A model generated the notes under the pieces. It had not been told where the DNA came from. It did not search any database and worked only from the letters and a program-made list of their open reading frames with translations. A DNA stretch of 64,000 nucleotides, from positions 453 to 64,452 of IMG/VR virus record IMGVR_UViG_3300045747_000058; one strand, given 5' to 3'. Positions 2,195-58,775 of the stretch are shown here, in pieces; position 1 is the first letter of the stretch, and the number at the start of each line of letters is the position of its first letter. Position numbers and translations under genes: made by a program. The DNA is from a virus.

Positions 2195-2207
2195 ATCGAA
2201 GCTCTAA
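2195..2207 (+). promoter_or_regulatory. 13-bp dispersed motif, copy 1 (ATCGAAGCTCTAA)
   Basis: Intergenic, 19 bp before ATG 2226. The 18-mer AGATCGAAGCTCTAACAC is identical at 57372-57389. Confidence 0.75.
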
Positions 2208-2225
2208 CACCGATCGGAATAAGAT

Positions 2226-2921
2226 ATGAGCGTACCCTCATGGAGTCATTCGAAGTTAACCGACTTCGATAAATGCAAGCACATGTTCTGGCTCAAGCAT
2301 GACCAGAAAATCCCCGAACCTGACCGCGTCCTACGTCCTGGCCAAACCGAGTTTGCCAACGACCGTGGCACCCGCGTCCATGACAACTGCGAGGCGTATG
2401 TGCGGGGTGACCATGACGCGCTTTGCCCCGAGGCCGAGAAGCACTTTGGCATCAAGATTGACCTCCTGCGCCACATGTACCAAGACGGCATCGTCAGCAT
2501 GGAAGGCGAGTGGGGCCACGACAAGGACTGGGAGATCGCCGAGTGGAAAAAGGCGTGGCTGCGACTGAAGCTCGACGTGATGGTGATGGTGGACTCCACC
2601 CACGCCATCGTGATCGACTACAAGACCGGCAAGAAGTGGGGCAACGAAGTCAAGCACGCTGAGCAACTTCAACTGTACCAACTGTGCGCGTTTCTGCGCC
2701 ACCCGGAGCTAGAGAAGGTCACCGCCGAGTTGTGGTACCTCGACCAGAACGAGGTGACCTCGCAGACCTTCACGCGCCAGCAGGGCCTGCGCTTTCGTCA
2801 AGGCTTTGACAAGCGCGGCATCAGCGCCACTACGTGCGAAGTGTTTCCGCCGAACCCAAATAAATGGAGTTGCCTCTACTGCGCGTTTAAGAACACTGAA
2901 CATTGCACGGTAGGTGTGTAA
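2226..2921 (+). CDS. PD-(D/E)XK (Cas4-like) exonuclease
   Basis: WSHSKL start, GTRVH, KLDV...IDYKTGK, QLQLY and a C-terminal CLYC cluster. Confidence 0.88.
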   Translation: MSVPSWSHSKLTDFDKCKHMFWLKHDQKIPEPDRVLRPGQTEFANDRGTRVHDNCEAYVRGDHDALCPEAEKHFGIKIDLLRHMYQDGIVSMEGEWGHDKDWEIAEWKKAWLRLKLDVMVMVDSTHAIVIDYKTGKKWGNEVKHAEQLQLYQLCAFLRHPELEKVTAELWYLDQNEVTSQTFTRQQGLRFRQGFDKRGISATTCEVFPPNPNKWSCLYCAFKNTEHCTVGV

Positions 2922-3009
2922 ACGCACCACGCAGACTCCATAAAGGAGCGCCACCTCCTCAAGAAGTGGCACGACCGAATTCTCCAATACCAAGCAAAGG
3001 AACGACTCC

Positions 3010-4539
3010 GTGGACGTATCTACCCCAGTGCGCTCAACCTTGCGCGGCGCTTCGAAACAGAGCAAGGTCTCCAAAGCCAGCACCGCCGTAATCAAGCCCT
3101 TCGCGCATCAGGTCAAGTCGCTCAAGCACAACGAGAAGACCGAGATCGTGTACGACTGCTCGGACCCAGGGACTGGGAAGACATACGTGAGGATCATGGC
3201 GTTTCTGGCAAGATTGCGTTCTGGACGTGGGACACAATCGTCGACTCCTGGGCGAGCTATGCTCGTACTAGCGCCGAAATCATTGCTGAGATCGGTATGG
3301 CTCAACGACATCAAGAAGTTCGCCCCGGGCCTAAAAGTCGCAGTAAGCACGGCAGGCAAACACGAAAGCGTGTTTGAAGAAGATGCCGATGTCTACGTCA
3401 CCAACATCGACGCGGTGAAATGGCTGGCTAAGCAGAACAAGAAGTTCTTCGAGCGATTCAGCGAGTTGGTCATTGATGAGTCCACCGCGTACAAGCATCA
3501 CTCGTCTCAGCGTTCCAAGGCCGCTGCCAAGGTCAGCAAGTTCTTCCAGTACCGCTGCTGCATGACCGGCACGCCTAATGGGCGCAGCATCACGGACGTG
3601 TGGCACCAGATTTATCTGCTCGATGGCGGCAAGCGCCTCGGCCCGTCCTTCTTCGCGTTCCGCAACTCTGTGTGCGAGGCCAAACAGGTCGGTCGTAACC
3701 AGCATGCCATTCAGTGGACTGACAAGACCGGCGCTGAAGAGGCTGTGTTCGGATTGCTGAGCGACATCGTGATTCGCCACAAGTTCGAAGACTGCGTGGA
3801 CATCCCGGCCAACCACCAGTACAGCATCCCCTACGAGTTATCGCCCAAGCACCGCAAGGCGTACGACGAGATGGAAGCGTTCTGCATGCTGGAGATTCAC
3901 GGCACGCTCGAAGAGCAGGCTCTGGCCCGCATGCGTGCGACCACCGTGGCGCAGATGAAGGCCAAGGCCAAGATCGCCCCCAAGGTGATCAGCGCTGTGC
4001 ATGCCGGCGCGCTGGCCCAAAAGCTCATGCAAATCGCCTCGGGCGCTGTGTATGAACCCGGCGGGACCTACCACGTGCTGGACACCGGGCGTTACGAGAT
4101 GATCCTTGATCTGATCGAAGAGCGCCAGCACAGCTTGTGCTTCTTCTACTGGAAGCACCAGCGTGACCTGTTGTGCCAGGAGGCCGACAAGCGTGGCATT
4201 ACCTTCGCAGTGATCGACGGCGATACCGGCGAGACTGAGCGTGAAGAGATCGTGGCGCGCTACCAGCGCGGCGCGTACCAGACGCTCTTTGCTCACCCCA
4301 AGAGCGCTGCCCATGGCCTGACCCTCACCAAGGGCACGGCCACCATCTGGCCCTCTCCGACGTACGACTTGGAGTTGTTTAAGCAAGGCTCCAAGCGTCA
4401 GCACCGGATGGGTCAGACCAAAAAGACCGAGACCATCATCGTGACCGCCACGAACACGATGGAGGAGAAGGTCTACAAAATTTTGTCAGACAAAGATGCT
4501 CGTATGAGCAACTTGCTTGACTTGTTTTCTACTCTCTAA
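3010..4539 (+). CDS. SNF2-like SF2 DNA helicase
   Basis: Walker A DPGTGKT, Walker B variant IDES, motif III MTGTP, HGLTLT and motif VI RQHRMGQ. Confidence 0.92.
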   Translation: MDVSTPVRSTLRGASKQSKVSKASTAVIKPFAHQVKSLKHNEKTEIVYDCSDPGTGKTYVRIMAFLARLRSGRGTQSSTPGRAMLVLAPKSLLRSVWLNDIKKFAPGLKVAVSTAGKHESVFEEDADVYVTNIDAVKWLAKQNKKFFERFSELVIDESTAYKHHSSQRSKAAAKVSKFFQYRCCMTGTPNGRSITDVWHQIYLLDGGKRLGPSFFAFRNSVCEAKQVGRNQHAIQWTDKTGAEEAVFGLLSDIVIRHKFEDCVDIPANHQYSIPYELSPKHRKAYDEMEAFCMLEIHGTLEEQALARMRATTVAQMKAKAKIAPKVISAVHAGALAQKLMQIASGAVYEPGGTYHVLDTGRYEMILDLIEERQHSLCFFYWKHQRDLLCQEADKRGITFAVIDGDTGETEREEIVARYQRGAYQTLFAHPKSAAHGLTLTKGTATIWPSPTYDLELFKQGSKRQHRMGQTKKTETIIVTATNTMEEKVYKILSDKDARMSNLLDLFSTL

Positions 4540-4549
4540 GAAAGATAGT

Positions 4550-4705
4550 ATGACGTTCGTAATGATCCAAGGTGCCTTTGCTGCCCGCTACGAAGGGCGC
4601 ACACAGCAAGAGATTATTGAAGTAAGTAACTGGAACTGGCCCGGGTGGGACATCTGCCAGTTCATTGAAGACTTCCGCATCAATGGCGAGAAAGCACTGG
4701 CATGA
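4550..4705 (+). CDS. Small hypothetical protein
   Basis: 51-aa ORF coupled to the next gene by an ATGA overlap. Confidence 0.55.
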   Translation: MTFVMIQGAFAARYEGRTQQEIIEVSNWNWPGWDICQFIEDFRINGEKALA

Positions 4706-4911
4706 CTGAGAATTTCAAACTCAATAAGGACGCATCCGTGGCCGTCGCTAATGACTACTTCTGGCAAAAGATTAACCCTGACACACCGCGCGGCGTAAAA
4801 CTTCAGCTGCTCGGTATCGGCGGCGTGGCAGCGTACGGCCACTGGGATGGCAAAAACCGCTACTGGACACACTGGGCACCCTGCCCTCGCATGCCCAAGG
4901 AGAACGTCTGA
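4702..4911 (+). CDS. Hypothetical protein (DUF551-like C-terminus)
   Basis: 69 aa ending WTHWAPCPRMP, a common phage small-protein motif. Confidence 0.7.
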   Translation: MTENFKLNKDASVAVANDYFWQKINPDTPRGVKLQLLGIGGVAAYGHWDGKNRYWTHWAPCPRMPKENV

Positions 4912-7159: not shown

Positions 7160-7918
7160 TTGATGTTCGCCATCAGTGGAAGAAACTTGCCGGACGTGCG
7201 TTCGTACGAAGACGCACTCAAGACGTGGGACGAAGCACACCAGCATGCCCGCTTTGGAACAGGTTGGCGTGGGTTGAAAGACAAGCGCGATACCAACAAG
7301 ATCATCCGCAAAGAAGGCGACAAGATTTTCTTTCGCTACCACACGACTGACCTCGTGACGTGGTTACCTGACCGAATCTGGATCAAACAATACGACAGCC
7401 CGAGTTCGTGCATCTTCACCAACTGCTTCACACCTCCCAGTGTCTGGGCGGTACAGAAGAAAGGTGAGATGTATGTGGCATGCAATGGCGGCTACTACCA
7501 GTCGTCGCTCTTGGCTGTCGAGATCGTGAAGGACAAGTTTGGGTGGGCAGTGACACCTGAGTCTGTTTACCAATTTCCCAAGTACACGCTGGACAAGAGC
7601 AAGGCCGCGAAAATCAGGAAGGTGCTCAAGCCGTTCCGTGATTACCGTGACTCTGTGCTGCGGCTGCGCGGTGGTCGGCATGAAGCAGAGTACTGCGATG
7701 AATACCGACTCTGTGTCATCTTGCGCAACCTCTTCGCTTCCCCGCAGATGACTGAGGAGATGCAGCGTGATCTGCTCTCCGAGGCAAATGCGTATGACGA
7801 CAGTCTGCTTCTGAAGAATGCGTACCTCACCGGTGGGGCGGTGAGTGTGACGCACGTGGCTGGTGAGCTTCGCCCCGAGAACCCGTATGCAGGACGTTCC
7901 GGTCTGCACTACATCTAA
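7160..7918 (+). CDS. Hypothetical protein
   Basis: 252-aa ORF with GGAG RBS. Confidence 0.8.
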   Translation: MMFAISGRNLPDVRSYEDALKTWDEAHQHARFGTGWRGLKDKRDTNKIIRKEGDKIFFRYHTTDLVTWLPDRIWIKQYDSPSSCIFTNCFTPPSVWAVQKKGEMYVACNGGYYQSSLLAVEIVKDKFGWAVTPESVYQFPKYTLDKSKAAKIRKVLKPFRDYRDSVLRLRGGRHEAEYCDEYRLCVILRNLFASPQMTEEMQRDLLSEANAYDDSLLLKNAYLTGGAVSVTHVAGELRPENPYAGRSGLHYI

Positions 7919-7925
7919 ACTCTAT
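7913..7925 (+). promoter_or_regulatory. 13-bp dispersed motif, copy 2 (ATCTAAACTCTAT)
   Basis: Directly abuts the -35 hexamer of the promoter at 7926. Confidence 0.65.
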
Positions 7926-7954
7926 TTGCGATCTGTTAAAGATTGCAGTACAAT
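7926..7954 (+). promoter_or_regulatory. Sigma70-type promoter
   Basis: TTGCGA-17 bp-TACAAT in an intergenic region upstream of ATG 7974. Confidence 0.7.
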
Positions 7955-7973: not shown

Positions 7974-8390
7974 ATGATGGCAACAGCCACAGCTACCAAA
8001 ACCATGCCCAAGGTCCGTGAACTCGCGGTGGGCGCAACGATTGACCAACTGTGGGGCTACCGCGAGCAGAAGCGTGCTCTGGAGGCCCAGATCAAAGAGG
8101 TCGAAGAGAAGGCCAAAGGGATCGAAGAATCCCTCATGGAGCGCTTGGGCAAGGAGGGTCTGGAGAAGGCTACTGGCACCAAAGCATCTGTGTCCATTAC
8201 TGCGTCCGTCACTGCCGATGTGCAGGACTGGGACGCGTTCTACCCCTACATCGCAAAGAACAAATTCTGGCATTTGCTCCAGCGGCGTGTTTCCGATCCC
8301 AGCTATCGTGAATTGCTGGAGCAAGGCAAGAAGGTGCCGGGCGTCGTCCCGTTCACCAAGAAGCGTATCAATCTCCGTTCCACAACTTAA
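7974..8390 (+). CDS. Conserved phage hypothetical protein (coiled-coil N-terminus)
   Basis: AAGGAG RBS. DWDAFYPYI and VPGV motifs are typical of phage replication-region proteins. Confidence 0.8.
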   Translation: MMATATATKTMPKVRELAVGATIDQLWGYREQKRALEAQIKEVEEKAKGIEESLMERLGKEGLEKATGTKASVSITASVTADVQDWDAFYPYIAKNKFWHLLQRRVSDPSYRELLEQGKKVPGVVPFTKKRINLRSTT

Positions 8391-8398: not shown

Positions 8399-9190
8399 AT
8401 GGCCACCGCAAAAAAGACTGCAACCGCAGCACCCGCCGCCAAACCGGCGAAAACCAGCACCAACGTCGTAGCTCTGAAAAAGACTAGCGGCGCTGTTGTC
8501 GACATTCGCGCTCAGCTGCAAGCTCAGGCTGCAGCAATGAATGAGCGCACAGCCCCTGCCACCGGCATCAACATCCGTACCGCCGGTAAAAAGTTTAGCT
8601 TTCCCGACGGCCGCAAAGATGACGGCCCTGTGGAGATGGTCGTCGTTGACTTCGTAGCTCGTAATGAGTTCTATGAAGCTGACTTTGACAAGGACAACAT
8701 TGTCCCGCCTGCATGCTTCGCCATCGGCAACATCCCCACCAAGCTGGTGGCTTCAGATAACAGCCCGCAGAAGCAGTGCGACGACTGTGCCAGCTGCCCC
8801 ATGAACGCATTTGGTTCTAAAGGTAAGGGCAAGGCCTGCTCCAACACACGCCTTCTGGCCGTGGTGGAACCCGGCTCTGCCGCTGATGCGCCGATCTACT
8901 TGCTGAAGGTGTCGCCTACTGGTTTGAAGTCATTCGATGGCTTCGTGCAGAGCACCAGCCGCACGTTCCAGATGCCGCCTGTCGGTGTGGTCGTGACTGT
9001 CGGCTTCGACGACAACGAAGACTACCCCAAGCTGACTTTCAGCGATGCCAAGCCCAATGAGGACTTGGAAGCGCACTTCAGCCGCCAGGAAGAAGCTCGC
9101 CAGCTGCTGAGTCAGGAACCTGATGTGTCGGGTTACGAAACTCCGAAGCCCAAGGCTGCGAAGGGTCGCCCGACACCGGCTCGCCGTTAA
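8399..9190 (+). CDS. Putative ssDNA-binding/annealing protein
   Basis: 263 aa. PPACFA...CDDCASCPMNAFGS...GKACSNTRLLAV motif. Sits in the replication module. Confidence 0.6.
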   Translation: MATAKKTATAAPAAKPAKTSTNVVALKKTSGAVVDIRAQLQAQAAAMNERTAPATGINIRTAGKKFSFPDGRKDDGPVEMVVVDFVARNEFYEADFDKDNIVPPACFAIGNIPTKLVASDNSPQKQCDDCASCPMNAFGSKGKGKACSNTRLLAVVEPGSAADAPIYLLKVSPTGLKSFDGFVQSTSRTFQMPPVGVVVTVGFDDNEDYPKLTFSDAKPNEDLEAHFSRQEEARQLLSQEPDVSGYETPKPKAAKGRPTPARR

Positions 9191-9756: not shown

Positions 9757-9758
9757 CC

Positions 9759-9775
9759 CGATCTAGATTAGATCG
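9759..9775. promoter_or_regulatory. Operator-like palindrome CGATCTA-GAT-TAGATCG
   Basis: Perfect 7-bp inverted repeat sharing the ATCTA half-site of the dispersed motif. Confidence 0.55.
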
Positions 9776-9806
9776 ACCAACAAAACTACTTCAGGAGGAT
9801 GCGCAA

Positions 9807-11252: not shown

Positions 11253-11627
11253 ATGAGACATTCTGAGAAGGGGCTTCTTCAGACCCTGGAGAAAATTCTT
11301 CGTACTACGGGGCAACCAATGGACTGCAACCAGCTGTTCGATATGCCTGAAGTCAGGGAGTACGCCGCTACAGCAAACCGTGTATCGGACTATCTTGGTG
11401 GGTTGTGGCGTAAAGGGCTTGTGACTCGTTTACCGTCAGCAAGCGAAGGTACCTCTCGCGCTCGTTGGAGCTACCAGTGGAAAGAACTAGCTCCTCTAGG
11501 CGTCGGTGTGGAATACGCTCCTCGACTAATCGCGGACCGTCCGAATCTTGTCATCACTGAAGATGGGACGACGATCCACATAACGCTCCCTCATCTCGTC
11601 ATCTCCATTCGGCAAACTAAGTCATAA
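11253..11627 (+). CDS. Putative winged-helix DNA-binding protein
   Basis: AAGGAG RBS. Pattern of helices then VSDYLGGLWRKGLVTR...WSYQW resembles a wHTH wing. Confidence 0.65.
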   Translation: MRHSEKGLLQTLEKILRTTGQPMDCNQLFDMPEVREYAATANRVSDYLGGLWRKGLVTRLPSASEGTSRARWSYQWKELAPLGVGVEYAPRLIADRPNLVITEDGTTIHITLPHLVISIRQTKS

Positions 11628-11653
11628 CCCTAATGCCTTCGGGCACTCCTGAA

Positions 11654-11666
11654 ATCTAAGCTCTAT
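11654..11666 (+). promoter_or_regulatory. 13-bp dispersed motif, copy 3 (ATCTAAGCTCTAT)
   Basis: Overlaps the start codon of 11665. Preceded by a C(UUCG)G mini-hairpin. Confidence 0.7.
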
Positions 11667-11904
11667 GCACGACCTAACAAAAGAAGAAAAGAACGAAGCG
11701 GCCGCGCAGAACTGGGGACTATTCCATGTCTACGACACCACAAAAGAGATGTGGGTGATGACTGTGCTACCCATCAATTTTTCGGACACGGTAGGCGCTA
11801 TGCAAGCGCTCAACCATGTTGTGAGTCAAGCGAAGTTCAACCACTCTCTGAGTCTGAAGGTATTGCGCCTGATGGCTCAGTTCAACGCAGGATCGAAAAA
11901 GTGA
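11665..11904 (+). CDS. Hypothetical protein
   Basis: 79 aa, GTGA overlap with the ligase. Confidence 0.7.
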   Translation: MHDLTKEEKNEAAAQNWGLFHVYDTTKEMWVMTVLPINFSDTVGAMQALNHVVSQAKFNHSLSLKVLRLMAQFNAGSKK

Positions 11905-12794
11905 CAGCAATCAAACCTTTTAAGCCAATGCTCGCTTCCCCTATGGAACTTGAACATGTGCGATGGCCTATGTACGCATCTGTCAAGCTCGACGGCATTC
12001 GTGCCGTAGTGCGCGACGGCATGCTTCTTAGTCGTTCGCTCAAGCCGATCCCCAACTGGATCATCAGCAGCGCACTGAGCAAACCAATTTTTGAGGGCCT
12101 CGATGGCGAGTTAATTGTCGGCCCGACCACCAGCCCGACGTGTTATCGCGACACGGTCTCTGGGGTCATGTCGGAGGACAAGTCACCTGACTGGACGTTC
12201 CACGTGTTCGACCAATACAAGCACGGTGAGCCGTTCGATGCACGCATGGATCGTCTGGAAGCTACGGTGCGCAATATGGGTACCCGTATTGCTCGTCTGG
12301 AGCAAAAACTCGTTCACGACATCGAATCTCTAAATGAGTTCGAAGCGAAAGCACTAGAGGCTGGCCACGAAGGTGTGATTCTGCGTCACCCCAAGTCGCC
12401 CTATAAGTTCGGTCGCTCCACAGCTAAGGAGGGCTACTTGCTGAAGGTGAAGCGCTTCGTGGACGGTGAGGCCGAGATCATTGGTTTTGAAGAGGAGATG
12501 TTTAATGGAAACGAAGCGACCACAAACGAACTCGGACGCACTGCCCGAAGCAGCCACAAGTCAGGACTCATCGGTAAAGGAACTCTCGGCGCACTGCAAG
12601 TTAAGGATGCCAAAACTGCTGTTGAGTTCTCTATTGGGACTGGCTTCACAGCAGAGCAGCGCCAGCACATCTGGAACAACCGAGACAAGCTCCTCGGCAC
12701 GCTGCGCAAGTACAAGTCCTTCCCTATCGGAGTGAAGGACAAACCCCGTCACCCAGTGGACCTCGGCCCACGGGATGTCCGTGACTTGTCATGA
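11901..12794 (+). CDS. lig: ATP-dependent DNA ligase
   Basis: KPMLA, adenylation motif VKLDGIRA, LDGEL, EGVILR, LLKVKRF and OB-fold GTGF. GTG start. Confidence 0.95.
   Translation: MTAIKPFKPMLASPMELEHVRWPMYASVKLDGIRAVVRDGMLLSRSLKPIPNWIISSALSKPIFEGLDGELIVGPTTSPTCYRDTVSGVMSEDKSPDWTFHVFDQYKHGEPFDARMDRLEATVRNMGTRIARLEQKLVHDIESLNEFEAKALEAGHEGVILRHPKSPYKFGRSTAKEGYLLKVKRFVDGEAEIIGFEEEMFNGNEATTNELGRTARSSHKSGLIGKGTLGALQVKDAKTAVEFSIGTGFTAEQRQHIWNNRDKLLGTLRKYKSFPIGVKDKPRHPVDLGPRDVRDLS
12321..12333 (+). promoter_or_regulatory. 13-bp dispersed motif, intragenic copy 4 (ATCGAATCTCTAA)
   Basis: Exact fit to ATC(T/G)AANCTCTAA inside the ligase gene, in sense orientation. Confidence 0.5.
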
Positions 12795-13266: not shown

Positions 13267-13913
13267 ACCCGCAGCACATCTCTACGATGCTGCGCATGCA
13301 GGGCCAGATCAACAGCAAGATCGATCCCGACTGGCTGGGGGCTGACTACCCATGGCACCGCGCCATGTACGTCGAGGCAGTCGAGGCCTTGGACCTTTTT
13401 GGTTGGAAGTGGTGGAAACTCAAGCCCACGGCTGACCAGTACCAGATTCAACTTGAACTGGTGGACATCTGGCACTTCGCCATGAGCAACATTCTGGCTA
13501 TCCACGAAGGCGATCTCGTGGCCGCGAGCGTGGCGATCCAGGAATACTTCGACAAGCTCGAAGAGAACCCTGACTGCTACGGTGAAATTTCCACAGTCCA
13601 CACGCACACGTTGTTCGACCTGTTGGCTGGGTCTGCCGCCTTGCAGCGCCAGCTTAACGGCCCAGCGTTCAACGTGCTGATGGGGCGCTTCAATCTCACA
13701 TGGGATAAGTTGTACGAAATGTATGTCGGCAAGAACGTGCTCAACACGTTCCGCCAAGACCACGGGTACAAAGACGGCACGTATCAGAAGGAGTGGGGTG
13801 GCGTGGAAGATAACACCGTGCTTGAAAGTCTCATGGTGGTCAACCCTGACGCTTCGCCAGAGACACTGATGGACCTGTTAGAGCGTCACTATCAGATCGC
13901 CTTGACGACATGA
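13263..13913 (+). CDS. dut: Dimeric (all-alpha) dUTPase
   Basis: EAVE...GWKWWK, LELVDIWHF, YVGKNVLNTFRQDHGYKDGTY motifs of the dUTPase_2 family. Confidence 0.92.
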   Translation: MNPQHISTMLRMQGQINSKIDPDWLGADYPWHRAMYVEAVEALDLFGWKWWKLKPTADQYQIQLELVDIWHFAMSNILAIHEGDLVAASVAIQEYFDKLEENPDCYGEISTVHTHTLFDLLAGSAALQRQLNGPAFNVLMGRFNLTWDKLYEMYVGKNVLNTFRQDHGYKDGTYQKEWGGVEDNTVLESLMVVNPDASPETLMDLLERHYQIALTT

Positions 13914-14212
13914 CACTCACGTCCACTTCTGCCAAGTTGTCAATTGACACCACGGCCCTGGAGCAGCTGGTCTATGAGGCCATTCTGTCTACCAAGGAAC
14001 GTGGTGCGATTAGCGACGAGCTACGCCATATGTTTCCGAACCTTGCCTACTCGTCGGTGACAGCGCGGTACGCCGCGCTCGAAGCGCAGGGCCGCATCTA
14101 CCGCCCCGGTGTGACGCGCCAGGGCGACAGTGGCCGAGCGCAGATGGTGATGTGGGCGGGTAAATATGCCGGTCGTGCTAGTGACCGCCTCCGAAAGGTG
14201 CTCGGTCTGTGA
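13910..14212 (+). CDS. Putative winged-helix DNA-binding protein
   Basis: GAISDEL...YSSVTARYAALEAQGRI...SGRAQMV. Confidence 0.65.
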   Translation: MTLTSTSAKLSIDTTALEQLVYEAILSTKERGAISDELRHMFPNLAYSSVTARYAALEAQGRIYRPGVTRQGDSGRAQMVMWAGKYAGRASDRLRKVLGL

Positions 14213-14538
14213 AGTCTCTTGGCCTCGTCGACGCTGCTGCCCTGCTCCGTATTCACCCGAGTACGTTGCAGGCGCGCGCGAAGGCGGGCCTTATTCCCGG
14301 TTCAAAGATTGGCCGCGCATGGGTGTTCTTGGAGGACGACCTTGTCTCCTACATTCGTGGCGGACAGGAGAACGTATGTCCCTCTACAAACAAACACCAG
14401 ACGGCCCGTGGTGGGTCAGCATCACTCACCCCAATGCACCACGGGTACGTCGCTCAACTGGAACAGTTGATAAAAAAGAAGCGCAACGAATCCACGATGA
14501 GATCAAGGCAGAGTTATGGAAAATCACACCCAAGCTAA
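14209..14538 (+). CDS. xis: Excisionase-like HTH protein
   Basis: LVDAAALLRIHPSTLQARAKAGLIPGSKIGRAWVF (MerR/Xis HTH). The 3' end overlaps int by 163 bp. Confidence 0.85.
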   Translation: MKSLGLVDAAALLRIHPSTLQARAKAGLIPGSKIGRAWVFLEDDLVSYIRGGQENVCPSTNKHQTARGGSASLTPMHHGYVAQLEQLIKKKRNESTMRSRQSYGKSHPS

Positions 14539-15368
14539 GTGGCAAAACCTGGGGTATGGCGGTCATGAAGTGGGTCTCAAAAGAGACCCGCAGCGACAGC
14601 GAGTTATTGAGTCTAGCCAAGCTCGGACGTATTTATACGGATCGCGCGCTGACTTCCATGACGCGGGAGAGCATCCACAGTGCCCTAGCGTTCTGCAAGA
14701 CTGCAGGCACGTACACACGCTACCGCACCATGATCATGGCGATTTTGAATGTCGCCAAAGACGAAGGCTGGCTGCGCGAAGTGCCGAAGCTCGCCACCAA
14801 GACCGACAAGAAGACCAAGCCGCGTGAGTGGATCACGCAAGAACAATGGACCAAACTTTATGCAGAACTCCCAGGACACCTCAAGCCCATGGCAGCTTTT
14901 GCAATCAGCACAGGACTTCGACAGTCTAATGTCCTTGGACTTCGATGGGACCGTGTTGACCTCGAACGAAGACTGGTATGGGTTGAAGCGGAAGATACCA
15001 AAGCCGATAAAGCTCTCGCCGTACCACTTAATGATGATGCGCTCGAAGTCCTCACGGCGCGACGTGTCAGGGGTGAGCACGATGAGTGGGTCTTTACGTT
15101 CCGAGGCAAGCCGATCAAGGATGTCAAGACGGCATTCATTGCTGCATGCATACGAGCCGGTGTTGGTCAGTCAACAAAGACTGGATATGTTGGTTTCACG
15201 TGGCATGGCTTTAGACACACATGGGCTACGTGGCACATTCAGCATGGAACTCCTCTGGAGGTTCTTATGCGGCTTGGCGGCTGGAGTGATATGCGTATGG
15301 TTCTTAACTACGCTCAGCACTCACCGGGGCATCTAGCCTCATATGCGAATAACGTGAGGAAGAAATGA
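14376..15368 (+). CDS. int: Tyrosine recombinase (phage integrase)
   Basis: STGLRQSNV (R), TKADK (K), WHGFRHTWATW (HxxR), LGGWS and VLNYAQ (catalytic Y). GGAG RBS before ATG 14376. Confidence 0.96.
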   Translation: MSLYKQTPDGPWWVSITHPNAPRVRRSTGTVDKKEAQRIHDEIKAELWKITPKLSGKTWGMAVMKWVSKETRSDSELLSLAKLGRIYTDRALTSMTRESIHSALAFCKTAGTYTRYRTMIMAILNVAKDEGWLREVPKLATKTDKKTKPREWITQEQWTKLYAELPGHLKPMAAFAISTGLRQSNVLGLRWDRVDLERRLVWVEAEDTKADKALAVPLNDDALEVLTARRVRGEHDEWVFTFRGKPIKDVKTAFIAACIRAGVGQSTKTGYVGFTWHGFRHTWATWHIQHGTPLEVLMRLGGWSDMRMVLNYAQHSPGHLASYANNVRKK

Positions 15369-15990: not shown

Positions 15991-16039
15991 TGGTAGGCGC
16001 AATTGGACTCGAACCAACGACCCCCACCATGTCAAGGTG
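15991..16039 (-). tRNA. attP core: 3' 49 nt of tRNA-Val(GAC), partial and not a functional tRNA
   Basis: Minus strand reads CACCTTGACATGGTGGGGGTCGTTGGTTCGAGTCCAATTGCGCCTACCA (anticodon arm, T arm, acceptor 3' strand, CCA). The D arm and 5' strand are absent. Confidence 0.92.
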
Positions 16040-16084
16040 CGCTGCCCCAGGTGCAAGGCCCTAGGCATGCGGGTTCTGGGGCGT

Positions 16085-18080: not shown

Positions 18081-18095
18081 GGTTTTAGTTCTAAG

Positions 18096-18108
18096 TTAGA
18101 GGTTAGAT
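18096..18108 (-). promoter_or_regulatory. 13-bp dispersed motif, copy 5 (ATCTAACCTCTAA on minus)
   Basis: 16 bp upstream of the first lysis gene. Overlaps a TCTAA-G-TTAGA palindrome. Confidence 0.75.
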
Positions 18109-45904: not shown

Positions 45905-46026
45905 TTTAGATCGAAGTTAGAGATAAGAAATCACAACGTCGAATATCGCCCCGACAAGCGAGAGTGGTAGGTGCTATCGTGACCTTACCTGAACCGTATG
46001 TTGCGCATTCTAATCTAAATTAGAAC
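45905..46026 (-). promoter_or_regulatory. Putative capsid promoter region with TCTAA half-sites
   Basis: Minus strand TTCTAATTTAGAT-TAGAAT (good -10, poor -35), plus CTCTAACTTCGATCTAA just before the RBS. Confidence 0.5.
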
Positions 46027-46039
46027 GGCGTTCGATCTA

Positions 46040-52229: not shown

Positions 52230-53813
52230 TTACGCGGCCATGGCTGAGCCAGAGGAGTTCGAAACTCGGAGTTTGTCGCGCCAGGATTTCATGGGTTTCA
52301 CCTCTGTTTTACGTGGCGCTTCGCGCCCAATCACCATCTGTGCCATCCAGGCCAACGAGTCCACTTGGTCGTCGTGTGCCCCGGCCGGAAAACGTAGCAT
52401 TTCTGCGCGAAGGGACTCGTACCACTCGCCACTCGTGTTGAAACTGACCATCCCTTGCTGCATCCGACCCTGAAGGGGTCTAGCGCGGGCCATTTTGTCG
52501 GTGATGGGCTTCAGAACCACGATGGATGGGTAGAACTTCCTCTCTCGCATCCGTTTCTTAAGTAGAGCTTCGATTGCGCGCCAAATCTGGCCGTCCTCGA
52601 AGCCCAGTATCAGGGTCGGACTATACCATTTCGTCGCTAGATTCAGAATAGATTCAACGATGAAGAACGCGTTCCCGCTTTTGAACCGCACTTGATCCAC
52701 CACGTGCAGCACGTCGTCCTGATCCTGCAGCCCCACGGTGCCCACGGTGTAATCGGACTGTTTCTTCTCACTGATGGCAAAGTCCCAAGCCATGTAGACA
52801 TAGGACCTCTGGAGGTGCGGGGGCTGGGACCGCCGAAACTGGTCCTTCATGAAATACGAGCCGTCCGATGGCACTGGGTTCTGTTGGTACAGGGCGCTCC
52901 ACCACCGACTGCCCTTGTTCTGTGCCCGAATACGGTTCAGCTTGTCCAAATCGTACCGGTCGGGGTGCAGCGCCTCACCCTTGCAACGCAGGAGAGTGTG
53001 CGGGGTGTCTGGAGGCGCGTCGTACTCAATCAGGTCGGTCTCATGGTTCAGGTACTCGTCCGCCTCAGCGATGGCCGGGTACTTGATCACTTCAAACTGA
53101 TCCACAAACTCGTCGTCGCTGCCCTCCTTCATCATCAGCTGAAGGCGACCGGCGAGATCGTCATCGTGCCACCACGTCTGGATAATCAGCACCCCGCCGC
53201 CTGGGGCTAGACGGGAGTACGCGGTGGATAGGTACCACTCCCAAATTTTTTCTCGCGTATCAGCCGAATCTGCTTCCTCAGCATTCTTGATTGGGTCATC
53301 AATAACGAGGCAATGCGCGCCTTTTCCGGTGATCGCTCCACCGATGCCCGCAGCCACGTACCCCCCACGCTGGCCATGGACCCCCCAAGACTCTGTCGAC
53401 TGATTATTGGGGTCCAGACGGGTCTCGTATAGGTTCTCATACAGGGGGTCGGCGATGATCTGCTTAACCTTGCGGGAGAAATCCATAGCCAGAGAGACGT
53501 TATAAGAGCACGCAATGAATTCATGGTCAGGGTGCTGGCCGAGGTGCCAAGCAGGGAAGTTACGGGAAACCAGTTCGGACTTACCGTGGCGCGGGGGCAT
53601 GAGCAGCATCAGGCGCGGGGACTTCCCGTCCGCTACATCACGGGAGAACCGCTCCAGGCGGCGGCAGATGTCACGGTGGACCCAGCCATCCTTGTACTTG
53701 TTGTTGAACCGCTTCACGAACGGCATCAGGGTGCGCTTGGCAAGCACGCGCTGGGCCATTTCGGCCTGCGCTTTGAGGAGAACGGGGCTAGGAGCCTGAT
53801 TCTTCGTCGCCAT
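52230..53813 (-). CDS. terL: Terminase large subunit
   Basis: MPPRHGKS Walker A, VIDDP Walker B, RNase H-like AWDFA and HDDQVD. Confidence 0.96.
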   Translation of the reverse strand: MATKNQAPSPVLLKAQAEMAQRVLAKRTLMPFVKRFNNKYKDGWVHRDICRRLERFSRDVADGKSPRLMLLMPPRHGKSELVSRNFPAWHLGQHPDHEFIACSYNVSLAMDFSRKVKQIIADPLYENLYETRLDPNNQSTESWGVHGQRGGYVAAGIGGAITGKGAHCLVIDDPIKNAEEADSADTREKIWEWYLSTAYSRLAPGGGVLIIQTWWHDDDLAGRLQLMMKEGSDDEFVDQFEVIKYPAIAEADEYLNHETDLIEYDAPPDTPHTLLRCKGEALHPDRYDLDKLNRIRAQNKGSRWWSALYQQNPVPSDGSYFMKDQFRRSQPPHLQRSYVYMAWDFAISEKKQSDYTVGTVGLQDQDDVLHVVDQVRFKSGNAFFIVESILNLATKWYSPTLILGFEDGQIWRAIEALLKKRMRERKFYPSIVVLKPITDKMARARPLQGRMQQGMVSFNTSGEWYESLRAEMLRFPAGAHDDQVDSLAWMAQMVIGREAPRKTEVKPMKSWRDKLRVSNSSGSAMAA

Positions 53814-54330
53814 CGTCGTGGTCCTGCCCGATCAGGGCCTGATCCACGCCGGTGAGGGACGCTTCTTCGATGATTTTGAGGAGTTCGGCGTCTGACATCT
53901 TATTCATCCGCTCAATGGCGACGCTGCCGTTCACATTCACATTCACGTCGATCTTTTTCGGCTCGTAGAAGCCGCACATCTTCCCGATCTCGCGCCAGCC
54001 AGCAATCATCGTGGCCGGTTCGCTCATGAGGCGAGCCATCTCAATGGAATCTTTCAGCCCTTCGAGCACGTCGGCGCGGGTGATCTGCGACTCCCGCTGA
54101 AACGCATCCACTTGGAGACGGTAGGCCTTCTGGATGTGGGGCATGGTCCGCAGTTTGTGCCCGTAGTTCGCTTTTTCGTCGAACCCGGCGCGCAGGGCAG
54201 CGTTGTGGATGCTGTCGCCCCCGGCCCACAAACTCACAAACTCCTGCTGGCGCAGGGTCAAGGGCTGGTCTTCACGGGCCTCGCGCAAGGCCGCGAAGGT
54301 CTTGGGGCGGGGATTCTTGATGGTTGCCAT
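53788..54330 (-). CDS. terS: Terminase small subunit
   Basis: LTLRQQEFV...AALRAGF HTH, ITRADVL...IGKMCGFY. Overlaps terL. Confidence 0.88.
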   Translation of the reverse strand: MATIKNPRPKTFAALREAREDQPLTLRQQEFVSLWAGGDSIHNAALRAGFDEKANYGHKLRTMPHIQKAYRLQVDAFQRESQITRADVLEGLKDSIEMARLMSEPATMIAGWREIGKMCGFYEPKKIDVNVNVNGSVAIERMNKMSDAELLKIIEEASLTGVDQALIGQDHDDGDEESGS

Positions 54331-54346
54331 GGGTCGATTTTAGATC

Positions 54347-54458
54347 GAAAAAATTTTTTCTAAAAATTTTGGATTTAGAGCGACGTGTGAGGCTCTTATC
54401 CCCGTGTCCCGAATCGCACCCCTGGTTCGGATTCGTCTTCAGACACGCGGATAAGGAG
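54347..54458. other. Divergent control region: A-tract palindrome and long stem-loop (candidate packaging/terminus site)
   Basis: GAAAAAATTTTTTC at 54347-60. CTTATCCCCGTGTC/GACACGCGGATAAG is a 13/14 inverted repeat with an inner CGAATC/GATTCG stem. Confidence 0.5.
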
Positions 54459-54893: not shown

Positions 54894-54936
54894 TGCCTAG
54901 TTTGTCTTTTACCTCGTAACTCTAAAGGAGATCGTA

Positions 54937-57131: not shown

Positions 57132-57386
57132 ATGGCTAATGCCCAACGTCAACCCAAGATCACCGTGCTGCCCTACATGGGCAAACACCGCGAGAAGCCT
57201 GAGGTCGTAGACGACGAGGTGCTGTTCGATCCGCACGGTCCTATGGGTCAGATGCTTGCAGAAACCACCGAGTGCGTCGGTAGCGACCCGCTAGACGTGT
57301 TGCTCAAGTACGAGTCCTGGCTCAAGAAGCACTTCGACATGACCTTGATCGAAGCTGCCATCTTTGGTGTGAGATCGAAGCTCTAA
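57132..57386 (+). CDS. Hypothetical protein
   Basis: 84 aa, acidic. Confidence 0.7.
   Translation: MANAQRQPKITVLPYMGKHREKPEVVDDEVLFDPHGPMGQMLAETTECVGSDPLDVLLKYESWLKKHFDMTLIEAAIFGVRSKL
57374..57386 (+). promoter_or_regulatory. 13-bp dispersed motif, copy 7 (ATCGAAGCTCTAA)
   Basis: Identical to copy 1 including flanks. Upstream of the 57480 leader. Confidence 0.75.
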
Positions 57387-57479
57387 CACAGATCGTAGCT
57401 AACAGGCGTTTATGAGACGCCTGTTGGATACGCACATTCCGTGTGTATCAACCTGTCTATCAACTTTTGGAGAAATCAA

Positions 57480-58487
57480 ATGAACGAACAAGCTATCGCC
57501 GTCCTGGCCTCTATCCAAGCTGCAACCAACAGCAAGGTCAAAACCGACTTGGCAGAACGCATCGAAGACCGTGTCGACGAGACCGGTATGAACAAGAACG
57601 GAAACATCATCTTTGAAGGACAAATCATGCATCGTGACGAAGTAGCTCAACTCATGGACAAGCGCGAGATCACAGCACGCGCATCCGCACTGTTCGATGT
57701 GCAAGACGTAATCCAAGACCAAGTGGTAGCTAACCACGCGCGCTTGGTCCTGCGTCGCAACATCTTGTGGGCAATCAATGCCCGCATCATCGGCAGTCTC
57801 AGGGACGTGCTCATTGGCATGGGCAAGACTGCGGTCGAGACCGGAAACATTGACAACTGGAACGAGTTCATGTCCGGTATCTCTGCAGCTGAGTCTTCTA
57901 GCCAGTATGCGGAAGACCTTGGCTACGCACACTACGGTAGCCAGATGTCCAAGGCACGTGCACTCATTGACATCGCACAGACATGGACTGACCACGCAGC
58001 CCGTGATGCAAAGGCAGCACGCGAAAAGCTGGACGCGCCTAACCTCATCGAGATGATGGCTAGTCCCCAGGACATGGACACTGCCAAAGCAGACAAGATG
58101 GCAATCGCCGTGCGTCTGCAGATGGAAGACGAGTTCACTGAGGACGAGATCAAAGAGTCTGAACAGTTCGCACGCAAGAAAGCTGTGAACGACCATCTGC
58201 GTCGTCAGGCTCTCAACAAAGAGCAGGCACCGATTTTGGAGAGGCTGTATCACGTGGCTCTTGAAGGCATGACACGGGTTGAGCCTGTTCAGTTCTGGCA
58301 GCTGCCCATTGAGACACAAGCCTCGCTGACTGAGTCGGTTATCCGTTCAGCCAAGAAGCTGCCGGAGCAACTGGCCAAGATGAACAGCGTGGACATCATT
58401 GAGTTGTCTATGGCTGTGCCTCAGCTGAAGCGCTTGGTGAAGAAGCTGGACGCTGTGTTGGAAAGCGATAAGTTCGCGGGTGTGTGA
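57480..58487 (+). CDS. Early alpha-helical hypothetical protein (335 aa)
   Basis: GGAG RBS, strong codon bias, no motif recognised. Confidence 0.82.
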   Translation: MNEQAIAVLASIQAATNSKVKTDLAERIEDRVDETGMNKNGNIIFEGQIMHRDEVAQLMDKREITARASALFDVQDVIQDQVVANHARLVLRRNILWAINARIIGSLRDVLIGMGKTAVETGNIDNWNEFMSGISAAESSSQYAEDLGYAHYGSQMSKARALIDIAQTWTDHAARDAKAAREKLDAPNLIEMMASPQDMDTAKADKMAIAVRLQMEDEFTEDEIKESEQFARKKAVNDHLRRQALNKEQAPILERLYHVALEGMTRVEPVQFWQLPIETQASLTESVIRSAKKLPEQLAKMNSVDIIELSMAVPQLKRLVKKLDAVLESDKFAGV

Positions 58488-58499
58488 ACTGTAGGTTGA

Positions 58500-58531
58500 A
58501 AGAGTGGGAGCTTCGGCTCCTACTCTTTTTT
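58500..58531 (+). terminator. Rho-independent terminator ending the early region
   Basis: AGAGTGGGAGC-TTCG-GCTCCTACTCT-TTTTT. Confidence 0.9.
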
Positions 58532-58615
58532 GTGTGGCGATGAGTGACTGCGTAAAAGTCTGTCTACCCGGTCGAGACTAAAAGACCATCCTTACGGTTT
58601 ATGCTTTCGATCGTC

Positions 58616-58747
58616 CCTACCTCTATAGAGAATAATATTTACTTTCTACTACTAATATACTTTATTTTCTTTATTGATAAGATAAGTTTATAAGTATAAG
58701 AGTATAAGGTATATAGAATTACAGAGGAGAACAGGTCTTTTGATCTG
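58616..58747. repeat. AT-rich element copy B (inverted relative to 18281-18411), candidate origin or promoter
   Basis: Boxes at 58616-27, 58683-708 and 58734-47 are exact reverse complements of the copy A boxes. Lies just upstream of the primase-helicase. Confidence 0.9.
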
Positions 58748-58762
58748 ACCTTACGTCTTTTG

Positions 58763-58775
58763 ATCTAAGCTCTGC
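58763..58775 (+). promoter_or_regulatory. 13-bp dispersed motif, copy 8 (ATCTAAGCTCTGC)
   Basis: Within the inverted repeat GATCTAA-N8-TTAGATC (58762-83), 40 bp before ATG 58815. Confidence 0.6.

Follow-up and report, generated by a model that had tools for sequence, protein, structure and literature searches.

Related regulatory systems

The stoperators of cluster A mycobacteriophages are dispersed, asymmetric sites that lie co-oriented with transcription at gene boundaries in both genome arms and are phage-specific (PMC9283540). We analyzed a window of 64,000 nucleotides from a virus (positions 453 to 64,452 of IMG/VR record IMGVR_UViG_3300045747_000058) for which an initial annotation had proposed an analogous system, based on a 13-bp motif oriented with transcription. 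The motif is real, and it is stronger than first described. As with the sites of L5 gp71 and the TipsytheTRex repressor (PMC9283540, PMC6550527), many asymmetric copies occupy both arms of a temperate phage without its own RNA polymerase, although there are 15-19 per genome here and more than 20 in cluster A. Both kinds of site are found in promoters and short intergenic gaps, often over stop or start codons, with an orientation that follows transcription.

The two systems differ in their parts. The cluster A site is a 13-bp monomer, whereas the site here has three half-sites of 5 bp, two of them direct and one inverted, over ~21 bp, and the cluster A binder is a 183-aa HTH plus Stoperator-domain protein, whereas our candidate is a 124-aa winged helix plus beta domain. 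Unlike cluster A, the hosts here are Burkholderiales and the virion is of the KPP25/Bcep22 podovirus type. The proposed analogy thus held for the genomic signature (dispersed, asymmetric, co-oriented, at boundaries, in both arms, phage-specific) and broke down on the 13-bp monomer site. The likeness is known here from sequence, and from it we infer repression and polarity on this phage.

A tripartite motif

Allowing two mismatches or fewer, the 13-mer has 14 matches in the window against 3.25 expected, a count reached by none of the shuffles (0/100). With one mismatch or fewer, the whole genome of this 64.5-kb phage contains 9 matches and the reversed pattern 0. When intergenic DNA was searched without bias for repeated 12-mers, this element also came out as the top family. 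It extends 3' beyond the 13-mer to a length of 21-23 bp (~25 bits), with the consensus (A)TC(T/G)AA-N-(C/A)TC(T/G)AA-N-TT(A/C)GA(T)(C). This is a tripartite site of ~21 bp, rather than the 13-bp monomer first reported, in which three TC(T/G)AA half-sites recur every 7 bp, the first two direct and the third inverted. A scoring matrix trained on five complete relatives alone, with the genome's own sites left out, identified 15 sites in the window against 0.1 expected from Markov-2 simulations. All eight copies listed initially exist (2195+, 7913+, 11654+, 12321+, 18096-, 37677-, 57374+, 58763+); the list had lacked 4527+, 42412-, 45917-, 52562- and 54913+, as well as two weaker in-gene sites (8465+, 22423-).

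When the inverted half-site is read on its own strand, its T/G degeneracy equals that of both direct half-sites. Between motif positions 4 and 17 there is no covariation (T:A 34, T:C 24, G:A 24, G:C 6), so a hairpin between half-sites 1 and 3 is unsupported, and a mini-stem between positions 9-11 and 17-19 is disrupted in ~28% of sites. The equal degeneracy and the lack of hairpin covariation argue for a motif that is read as double-stranded DNA, and palindromic versions with two half-sites are found in gaps that bear promoters. The half-site centers are merely 6-7 bp apart, an unusual spacing for winged-helix dimers.

Two other systems resemble this layout. The Fur box can be described as three NATWAT hexamers, two direct and one inverted, or as overlapping 7-1-7 repeats. 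Our motif shares its direct-direct-N-inverted arrangement, and half-sites 2 and 3 form a 7-1-7-like inverted repeat. The analogy is one of layout only, as the period here is 7 bp rather than 6, the candidate protein lacks a metal-binding dimerization domain, and Fur boxes are not known to follow an orientation rule. The C1 repressor of phage P1, a helical protein of ~283 aa, binds dispersed asymmetric 17-bp operators (consensus ATTGCTCTAATAAATTT), which lie at promoters with no known genome-wide orientation rule. As proposed for our phage, one repressor serves many asymmetric operators scattered across a large temperate phage genome. The P1 consensus and our motif have the heptamer GCTCTAA in common, which may be coincidence.

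Placement of the sites

The sites in the window and the two genes discussed with them are as follows (SD, Shine-Dalgarno sequence).

2195-2217, + strand: site ending 8 nt before the ATG of gene 2226-2921, SD absent in between
4527-4549, + strand: site holding the TAA stop of the SNF2 helicase gene and abutting the ATG at 4550; third half-site purine-rich, SD-like
7913-7935, + strand: site including the stop of gene 7160-7918; its third half-site is the -35 (TTGCGA) of a sigma70-like promoter, TTGCGA-17-TACAAT, at 7926-7954
8465-8487, + strand: weaker in-gene site, kept only in the two closest relatives
9758-9780, no strand assigned: near-palindromic arrangement of two half-sites, GATCTAGATTAGATC, located in a gap of 109 bp before the exonuclease gene, as a candidate for a symmetric operator
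11253-11627, + strand: 124-aa winged-helix plus beta-domain ORF, candidate motif binder
11654-11676, + strand: site 26 nt past the stop of the winged-helix gene, containing the next gene's ATG
12321-12343, + strand: in-gene site, lying in frame within the DNA ligase gene, with conservation in G001 and G002 only
14166-15368, + strand: tyrosine integrase, co-occurring with the winged-helix gene and the motif
18086-18108, - strand: highest-scoring site, 5 nt upstream of the ATG at 18080; it occupies the far end of a 350-bp gap with an AT-rich element
22423-22445, - strand: weaker in-gene site in the gene for a 2838-aa virion protein
37667-37689, - strand: site filling the spacer and -10 (TAGAAT) of a promoter-like TTGCCG-16-TAGAAT
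42402-42424, - strand: site flanked by the stop of gene 42424-42894 and the ATG at 42401, with an SD-like third half-site
45907-45929, - strand: site 14 nt upstream of the major capsid gene
46010-46032, - strand: palindromic partial site, TTCTAATTTAGAT then TAGAAT, ~100 bp upstream of the capsid-proximal site
52552-52574, - strand: in-gene site in TerL, kept in 7/7 winged-helix-positive genomes
54330-54352, - strand: weak partial site at the head of the late operon, where it overlaps the start of TerS
54913-54935, + strand: site followed after 1 nt by the ATG at 54937; its third half-site, AGGAGA, doubles as SD
57374-57396, + strand: site that includes the stop of gene 57132-57386; two hairpins come after it, and the next start is 83 nt off
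58763-58785, + strand: site 29 nt upstream of the primase gene, just downstream of an AT-rich element

With the matrix that excludes the genome's own sites, 15/15 window sites are co-oriented with the local genes, as are 91/101 sites over six genomes (p=1.7e-17). The full matrix scan and the relatives therefore bear out the orientation with transcription noted at first. Placement at gene boundaries was likewise upheld: in the window, 11/15 sites coincide at least in part with an intergenic gap or with a start or stop codon, and over the six genomes 66/101 lie at boundaries. The two promoter contexts named in the annotation (7926-7954 and 37677) are present, and two of its inverted half-site arrangements were recovered as palindromes at 9758-9780 and 46010-46032; a third two-half-site palindromic arrangement lies at 54330-54352. 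No -35 or -10 was found conserved at a fixed distance from the sites. Where promoter-like hexamers overlap sites, their register differs from site to site, which is typical of operators and not of activator sites.

The sites are also placed with respect to start codons. In 45/60 boundary sites, the motif ends 30 nt or less upstream of a start codon, and in long gaps the site stays 5-30 nt from the downstream start rather than near the upstream stop, which is beyond what a simple roadblock requires. The full range of motif-to-start distances is -18 to >100 nt. The start codon falls inside several sites, at position 12 or, in other loci, position 6, while several further sites reach a stop codon but no start, the next one lying 69-129 nt off. 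All genes with a site 3-10 nt upstream lack an SD. Where the site lies 0-2 nt before the start, the third half-site itself takes on an AAGGAGA-like sequence and supplies the SD, as is the case at six sites, each with the SD inside the motif. This absence or replacement of the SD hints at a role on the mRNA.

The capsid gene is preceded by a site in 6/6 genomes, and sites head the late operon in G001 and G005, though for many sites the gene downstream is not conserved among relatives. The TerL in-gene site, 1 nt upstream of an in-frame Met, is encoded by rare AT-rich codons in all seven genomes with the winged-helix gene, whereas motif-less relatives encode a similar peptide with GC-rich codons. 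From this codon usage, the TerL site appears to be under selection at the nucleotide level.

A winged-helix gene tracks the motif

Conservation in related phages was confirmed, with 15-19 sites in each of G000-G005. There are 4 each in G009 and G010 and none in G006-G008 or Pseudomonas phage KPP25. Homologues of ORF 11253-11627 occur in G001-G005 and in G009, a prophage of Herminiimonas sp. CN, but not in G006-G008, G010 or KPP25. It is the only gene that matches exactly the motif's presence pattern across relatives. Of three candidate binders named initially, this one stood, being both the sole gene to track the motif and linked to the integrase; ORFs 13910-14212 and 62613-62774 were ruled out as the conserved binder, as neither has a homologue in the motif-bearing G001-G005.

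The tyrosine integrase is present in G000, G001, G003, G004, G005 and G009, and absent from all relatives classed as motif-less (G006-G008, G010 and KPP25). In 29/38 loci with enough flank, an integrase lies 0.2-4.6 kb downstream of the winged-helix gene on the same strand. The motif thus co-occurs with both genes, a pattern that is based on 12 complete genomes and on phylogenetically non-independent loci, and that for the winged-helix gene could come partly from shared ancestry. G002 has no integrase, and its copy of the winged-helix gene has a stop at the invariant W76, yet it retains 19 sites. This fits a repressor that is dispensable in lytic growth, and not an essential activator, though G002 is a single case and the stop codon could be an assembly error. 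A relative that keeps its sites with no integrase and with a broken candidate binder gene is a further likeness to cluster A, where lytic D29 is described as derived by deletion from a parent that was temperate (PMC5712189).

The AlphaFold2 model of ORF 11253-11627 (pLDDT 88.8) predicts that residues 8-76 form a winged helix and residues 91-120 a beta meander of four strands. Its structural matches are winged-helix domains (Z 7-9), many of them regulators, including Fur/PerR/Zur, MarR, ArsR and a PhiH1 repressor-like protein. The Fur, PerR and Zur domains are among the best matches, as are RNA-binding SelB domains. There was no sequence similarity to any solved chain. A language model gave a weak lead (score 0.86) to the P1 late-promoter-activator family, and Pfam gave no match to that family (P1 Lpa).

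Among 74 IMG/VR loci carrying the gene, most have a site past its stop codon; of those with homologues of at least ~47% identity, nearly all have one 30-70 nt past the stop, and in more divergent homologues the site is altered or lost. Matches around the homologues number 180 on the gene's strand versus 23 on the opposite strand. The gene itself lies within a co-directional early/replication operon with an upstream gap of just 36 nt. We saw no convincing promoter dedicated to this gene, a difficulty given that a lysogen would have to express it.

Alternative explanations

The preference for start codons would be accounted for if the motif acted in the transcript, as an AU-rich element that tunes translation initiation or processing at cistron junctions, possibly with the winged-helix protein as an RNA binder. 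Orientation with transcription then follows automatically, and the hugging of starts in long gaps, the missing or built-in SDs, the in-frame Met after the TerL site and the SelB matches all suit such an element. The start-associated sequences (SAS/ESAS) of cluster K mycobacteriophages offer a precedent: SAS too is a repeated asymmetric motif directly before starts, nearly always in one orientation, conserved across subclusters and sometimes holding the upstream stop codon (PMC3203893). However, SAS is a 13-bp element with an AGGAG core that lies 3-7 bp before the start and occurs in the non-structural half only (PMC3203893), whereas the sites here mostly lack an SD core, vary widely in distance and occur in both arms. 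We consider this explanation unlikely, given that a reverse-complement half-site of equal degeneracy can be explained on duplex DNA but not on single-stranded RNA, that half-sites 1 and 3 show no stem covariation and the mini-stem is broken in part of the sites, that some sites cover only a stop codon or overlap -35 or -10 hexamers, and that palindromic versions lie upstream of likely promoters. It is rather improbable that each site is instead a phage-specific promoter or activator site, at which the winged-helix protein or an unrecognized polymerase or sigma-like factor initiates short-leader or leaderless mRNAs for middle and late genes. A self-contained, asymmetric, gene-directed element just upstream of starts does recall T7-type promoters and T4 MotA boxes, its third half-site reads TAGAAT, a good -10, in several sites, and SD-less genes 5-9 nt downstream could be leaderless. 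The sites before the capsid gene and late operons and the lead to the P1 activator family, the latter lacking Pfam support, point the same way. But Pfam and PHROG scans of ~45 ORFs, including all large ones, found no RNA polymerase or sigma factor, and no such gene tracks the motif. The would-be -10 is not at a fixed distance, has an invariant G at position 3 and usually has C for the critical final T. A fixed transcription start is unworkable for sites that end 0-2 nt from, or contain, the start codon; hairpins directly follow the site at 57374; and G002 is a complete genome despite its nonsense mutation.

Lambda Xis and P2 Cox are excisionases, small winged-helix proteins that bind directly repeated boxes, and a small winged-helix protein encoded upstream of an integrase could be a recombination directionality factor of this kind. 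The dispersed sites would then be secondary, with no global effect on transcription, for example as module-boundary sequences that favor mosaic recombination, and their frequent position before non-conserved genes is as expected at module junctions. We regard this as very improbable. No cluster of sites is found by the integrase/tRNA-Val region, the expected place of attP arms, where the sole match (15476) has 2 mismatches. Sites also precede core genes, the capsid gene among them, and the conservation of 15-19 co-oriented sites per genome, one of them kept by rare codons in TerL, suggests selection on each site and not passive junction scars.

A proposed dispersed operator system

The explanation that we favor, and to which we give an even chance, is that the motif sites serve a repressor of the lysogeny module as dispersed operators, akin to stoperators and convergent on those of cluster A mycobacteriophages. 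The binder would be the phage-encoded product of ORF 11253-11627, as a member of the integrase-proximal lysogeny module, and it would read the two direct and one inverted TC(T/G)AA half-sites on duplex DNA. In the lysogen, gene boundaries throughout both arms would be occupied by it, at ~15 sites per genome. Where a site overlaps a sigma70-like promoter, in one register or another, it would work as a classical operator, while at the majority, in tiny stop-start gaps, the bound protein would be an orientation-dependent, polar block to elongating host RNA polymerase. A ~65-kb prophage without a CI/Cro cassette would in this manner be silenced, most likely by a system like the mycobacteriophage stoperators that is built from unrelated parts.

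Genome organization and relatives

The window covers bases 453-64452 of a 64,565-bp IMG/VR record with an estimated completeness of 98%, and its G+C content is 57%. Genes were called with a codon-model caller, which also recovers the annotated strand blocks of KPP25, a cultured Pseudomonas phage relative. The gene blocks and the features that we refer to below are:

1-15.9 kb, plus strand: block with DUF2201 protein, SNF2 helicase, PolA, exonuclease, ATP ligase, NTP pyrophosphohydrolase and integrase
14166-15368, plus strand: tyrosine integrase
15991-16068, minus strand: tRNA-Val(GAC), directly 3' of the integrase module, where two gene blocks converge
54.3 down to 16.1 kb, minus strand: late block with TerS, TerL, portal, capsid, head closure, tail, a 2838-aa virion protein and lysis
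44780-45892, minus strand: major capsid gene
54.5 kb to end, plus strand: early block, including a DUF5906/VapE primase

The tRNA-Val(GAC) gene next to the integrase is likely the attP region or a tRNA-targeted integration site. The four largest virion/tail genes (18430-26946, 26961-30131, 32866-35286 and 37697-41407, all on the minus strand and encoding 2838, 1056, 806 and 1236 aa) lack a homologue over their full length in the ten complete relatives that we compared, while the head genes are 60-95% identical. The host-interaction module of the phage is highly mosaic.

By capsid protein, the closest cultured relatives are the Pseudomonas podophages KPP25 and phiR18 (63% identity), with Acidovorax phage AP1 and the Bcep22 group farther off. 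A megablast search of cultured phages with 10 kb of the window returned no match. Among sequencing runs, a search matched the window to two pond-metagenome DNA runs, one of which is probably its source, and to no RNA run. Pfam and PHROG scans of about forty-five ORFs, including all of the large ones, detected neither an RNA polymerase nor a sigma factor nor a CI/Cro-type repressor, and no gp71-like repressor was found among the same ORFs. A capsid-protein scan of IMG/VR returned 321 related stretches. From IMG/VR and cultured phages, the comparison set comprised ten complete relatives (G001-G010) and KPP25; the window itself is referred to as G000.

Structure and distribution of the motif

The initial annotation described a 13-bp motif in eight copies, and its coordinates were all correct on re-checking. 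Allowing up to two mismatches, the 13-mer has 14 matches in the window against 3.25 expected, a count not attained by any shuffle. When the flanks are aligned, conservation runs on in the 3' direction through a GA(T)(C) block, and the family consensus from this genome and five complete relatives is (A)TC(T/G)AA-N-(C/A)TC(T/G)AA-N-TT(A/C)GA(T)(C). The actual site is longer than the 13 bp first proposed. It is a tripartite element of about 21 bp, in which two direct TC(T/G)AA half-sites and an inverted third one repeat with a 7-bp period, and its information of about 25 bits is confined to about 21 positions.

A matrix built from the relatives only finds 15 sites in the window, compared with 0.1 in Markov-2 simulations. 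Site counts of 15 in the window and 15-19 in each of five relatives (G001-G005, capsid identity 75-95%) compare with 0.05-0.25 expected; those of G004 are rich in TCGAA. The motif also ranks first in an unbiased count of repeated 12-mers restricted to intergenic DNA, and a scan for the exact 21-bp pattern independently matched several of the same 66-71-kb contigs as the capsid scan. No conserved -35 or -10 was found at a constant spacing on either side of the motif, and an Rfam scan of the window returned no family. An IHF site (WATCAA-N4-TTR) was dismissed as the identity of the motif, since the motif has T or G, and in no case A, at position 4.

Three further relatives (G006-G008), with a capsid identity of 78%, have no sites, and neither does KPP25. 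G009 and G010 have four sites each, mostly palindromic; G009 also has the direct-direct-inverted layout, with TCTAC/TCTAA half-sites, in about eight intergenic places. The repeated GTTACGA words of KPP25 are not spread over the genome; they cluster in two intergenic regions. Intergenic regions of the motif-less G006 and G008 (L148-L151, L156-L159) contain repeated words of their own, TTCTATTCTTCT, AGAATAGAAGAA and TAGAAGAAAAGA, which could be a different regulatory repeat.

Orientation and placement of the sites

As the initial annotation had proposed, the motif is oriented with transcription: all 15 sites found in the window with the relatives-only matrix are on the coding strand of their local block. 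Across the six genomes G000-G005 (sites of at least 16 bits, n = 101), 91 of 101 sites are co-oriented with genes (p = 1.7e-17). The placement at gene boundaries was likewise borne out, with 66 of the 101 sites at boundaries although intergenic DNA is a minor share of the genomes.

The upstream gene's stop codon falls inside the site in nineteen of sixty boundary sites, as the TAA in one of half-sites 1 and 2 or as a TAA ending at position 1. In forty-five of the sixty, a start codon follows within 30 nt of the motif end. The distance from motif to start ranges from -18 to over 100 nt, and in long gaps the site keeps beside the downstream start. A Shine-Dalgarno sequence is lacking in genes that begin 3-10 nt after a site. 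At 0-2 nt (six sites) an AAGGAGA-like purine run replaces the third half-site and acts as the Shine-Dalgarno sequence, and at 12 nt or more an ordinary one is present between site and start. About thirteen genes make up the group that starts 3-10 nt after the motif without a Shine-Dalgarno sequence (2218-2228 and 18078-18085 in the window, and equivalents in G001-G005); despite these, AAGGAG is the most enriched upstream hexamer in the six genomes.

A few sites overlap sigma70-like promoters, in differing registers. In TTGCGA-17-TACAAT at 7913 the third half-site serves as the -35, and at 37677 the motif occupies the spacer and -10 of TTGCCG-16-TAGAAT. Past the site at 57374, which holds a stop codon, come two hairpins, and it is 83 nt to the next start. 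The site at 54913 abuts one of the leader boxes of the early genes. Palindromic versions with two half-sites are found at 9758 (5' of the exonuclease gene), 46010 (5' of the capsid gene) and 54330 (where the late operon begins), and the gaps that hold them probably also hold promoters.

Two AT-rich elements of about 130 bp, inverted relative to each other (18281-18430, minus strand; 58620-58760, plus strand), have long identical stretches in common (AAGTTTATAAGTATAAGAGTATAAG ... TTACAGAG ... GGTCTTTTGATCTG). Each is upstream of a motif site (18086-18108 and 58763-58785, respectively). Two intergenic regions of KPP25, located at about 26.2-26.9 kb and 58.1-58.6 kb, form an analogous pair that carries GTTACGAAATTT palindromes and CTACAGA boxes. 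These paired elements may be strong early promoters or origins.

Genes preceded by sites include capsid, tail, lysis, packaging and replication genes. A site precedes the capsid gene in six of six genomes, the gene at 2226-2921 in four of six, the gene at 7977-8390 in four of five, and the gene 3' of ORF 11253-11627 in at least four of six. Many further sites stand before genes not common to the six genomes, and more than half of the boundary sites in G000-G005 precede such unshared genes. The motif often marks junctions of exchangeable cassettes and could have a double role as a recombination hotspot.

One site inside a gene is also conserved. The site within TerL (52552-52574, minus strand) persists in each of the seven genomes with the winged-helix gene described below, where it is spelled by the rare codons GAA GCT/TCT CTA CTT/TTA AAG AAA. 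Motif-less relatives encode a similar TerL peptide with GAG GCG GTC CTC AAG AAG, and this difference in codons reflects nucleotide-level selection. An in-frame Met codon (KKR-M-RE) lies 1 nt beyond the end of the TerL site, whose third half-site is replaced by the purine run AAGAAA; in this it resembles sites abutting real start codons. Conceivably, an internal start produces a C-terminal fragment of TerL, about 108 aa long. The in-gene sites in the ligase gene and at 8465 are common only to the closest trio of genomes and may be inertia.

A candidate binding protein

Three ORFs had been put forward as binders of the motif, of which one was retained. In an all-against-all protein comparison, ORF 11253-11627 (plus strand) is the one gene whose presence matches the motif, and no large gene tracks it. 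ORFs 13910-14212 and 62613-62774 were rejected because neither has a homologue in any relative compared. Homologues of ORF 11253-11627 are present in G001-G005 (50-85% identity) and G009 (42%), and none was found in G006-G008, G010 or KPP25.

The 124-aa product has 136 relatives in the databases, all hypothetical and none with a Pfam domain, including one from Variovorax sp. J22R133. Among genome contigs, the protein matched MAGs of Polaromonas and Rhodoferax as well as Herminiimonas sp. CN, whose prophage is G009. A tblastn search of the cultured-phage collection gave no match, and a profile of the protein, run at E up to 10, found none among solved chains. Pfam and PHROG gave no family for it either, and forty family members searched against Pfam at E up to 5 returned noise only.

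In an AlphaFold2 model of the protein (pLDDT 88.8), residues 8-76 form a winged helix and residues 91-120 a four-strand beta meander. The modelled helices (8-19, 25-35, 41-53) and strands (57-61, 72-76) give the predicted winged-helix fold, in which a three-helix bundle with its recognition helix is followed by a beta-hairpin wing; an invariant RVSDYLG lies within the recognition helix. VIA-align matched the model to many winged-helix domains with Z of 8-9 across 62-73 residues. These matches are generic, many of them to regulators (Fur/PerR/Zur, MarR, ArsR, PhiH1 repressor-like) and others to SelB and Z-alpha domains. Foldseek (PDB and AFDB) and a wide VIA-align search identified no specific family, and no Cox, Xis or stoperator-repressor match stood out. 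A homodimer prediction scored 0.03, which gives no verdict either way.

We examined 74 loci of the gene in IMG/VR. A site is present 30-70 nt past the stop codon in nearly all of those whose protein is at least about 47% identical, and it usually holds the ATG of the next gene. More divergent homologues lack the canonical site and have variants such as CTCTAAC-GNN-GTCTTATG instead; a CTCTAAC...GTCTTA variant goes with homologues of 34-37% identity. In the window, the stretch between the stop codon and the downstream site (11628-11653) contains a small UUCG-type tetraloop hairpin (TGCC-TTCG-GGCA).

The gene is also linked to integration. An integrase lies 0.2-4.6 kb 3' of it, on the same strand, in 29 of the 38 loci whose downstream flank extends for 6 kb or more. 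Tyrosine integrases are present in G000, G001, G003, G004, G005 and G009, and none was found in G002, G006-G008, G010 or KPP25; five genomes checked for a serine recombinase (G002, G004, G005, G006, G010) had none. The complete genome G002 is integrase-less, yet has kept 19 motif sites, and its winged-helix gene (L170:10001-10375, equivalent to G002 24408-24779) has an in-frame stop at the invariant W76. A missing integrase, a broken winged-helix gene and retention of the sites are as expected of a lytic derivative, were the protein the repressor. It is possible that G002 is a natural lytic derivative of a temperate phage, and mycobacteriophage D29 has been described as a derivative of this sort (PMC5712189). 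Only one such stop was seen, and an assembly error could account for it.

What the motif is likely to do

Read on its own strand, the third half-site has a T/G degeneracy equal to that of the direct half-sites, with a T share of 64%, 74% and 71% at positions 4, 11 and 17 (complement), respectively. The same degeneracy in both orientations is expected of one protein module reading duplex half-sites. A hairpin pairing half-site 1 with half-site 3 was rejected, since there is no covariation between positions 4 and 17 (T:A 34, T:C 24, G:A 24, G:C 6; odds ratio 0.35). Positions 11 and 17 are weakly correlated, and a mini-stem there is mismatched in about 28% of sites. Given the matching degeneracy and the lack of support for a stem, we think it likely that the motif is a protein-binding site on double-stranded DNA.

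The best-supported reading of these sequence patterns is that the motif would be the dispersed operator set of the winged-helix protein, in a system that silences phage transcription. A site that overlaps a promoter would act as a classical operator, and one that takes up the space between cistrons would serve as a roadblock. The conserved site 3' of the binder gene would halt read-through from an always-on gene into genes kept off, and its position just past that gene fits the logic of a silencer. Three features do not fit comfortably: the binder gene has no evident promoter of its own, the sites hug start codons, and the genes downstream of them show the Shine-Dalgarno pattern described here. 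These points leave some room for a start-associated role at the mRNA level, like that of the start-associated sequences (SAS) of cluster K mycobacteriophages (PMC3203893). We nevertheless consider such a role unlikely, as the inverted half-site would present a reader of single-stranded RNA with two different words. The SAS also differ from our sites in carrying a Shine-Dalgarno core 3-7 bp before the start, whereas here only the six sites at 0-2 nt are Shine-Dalgarno-like, and in being restricted to the non-structural half of the genome, whereas our sites also stand before structural genes.

That the motif is instead a promoter or an activator's site seems less likely still. A polymerase or sigma gene was absent from the scans, and the phage differs from those with T7-type promoters in that no cognate single-subunit RNA polymerase was found by Pfam or PHROG among its large ORFs. 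There is no -10 at a fixed place, the overlaps with promoters are in variable registers, and a fixed transcript start is incompatible with start codons and Shine-Dalgarno sequences inside the motif. The nonsense allele in G002 also fits poorly with an activator that lytic growth could not do without. We regard it as very improbable that the protein is an excisionase or Cox-like protein with the sites as its junction sequences, which would leave the selection on individual sites unexplained.

Comparison with cluster A stoperators

To our knowledge, cluster A mycobacteriophages have until now been alone in using one repressor for genome-wide, orientation-dependent silencing. The phage studied here is like them in having many copies of one asymmetric site dispersed across the genome, in the correlation of site orientation with transcription, and in the location of sites in promoters (7913, 37677) and short intergenic spaces. 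The asymmetric 13-bp sites of cluster A repressors correlate with the direction of transcription and lose their function when inverted, and the cause of the block's polarity is still an open question (PMC9283540). That the protein here would likewise halt elongation in one orientation and confer immunity has indirect backing in the integrase linkage and in G002, with its missing integrase and broken gene for the candidate binder. In every feature that sequence can test, the motif system appears to resemble cluster A stoperators without being a member of that family. Repressors of the L5 gp71 type have an N-terminal HTH and a Stoperator domain and bind the 13-bp site as a monomer, whereas the candidate binder here is a predicted winged helix with a beta meander and no sequence similarity to solved chains, and its site is a tripartite 21-mer. 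The direct-direct-inverted layout is like that of the classical Fur box, as an analogy only.

The motif and its candidate binder would make up a stoperator-like silencing system, probably convergent, in temperate podophages of Burkholderiales hosts (Polaromonas, Rhodoferax, Variovorax, Herminiimonas). A fuller claim can be made only tentatively, and we lean somewhat against it: that this is the first stoperator-type system beyond actinobacteriophages, in which a genome of about 65 kb would be silenced by 15-20 polar roadblock/operator sites of tripartite, 7-bp-period build, convergent with cluster A and read by a previously undescribed winged-helix and beta-domain repressor.

A candidate function can now be assigned to more than 130 hypothetical proteins, and Herminiimonas sp. 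CN and Variovorax sp. J22R133, as natural lysogens, offer practical entry points. If the silencing system is real, it would provide a second system for asking how a small DNA-bound protein halts RNA polymerase in one direction, as well as orthogonal polar transcription blocks for proteobacterial synthetic biology. If it is an independent Gram-negative invention, with an unrelated protein and a site of another build, the strategy would be a general answer to the silencing of long operons.
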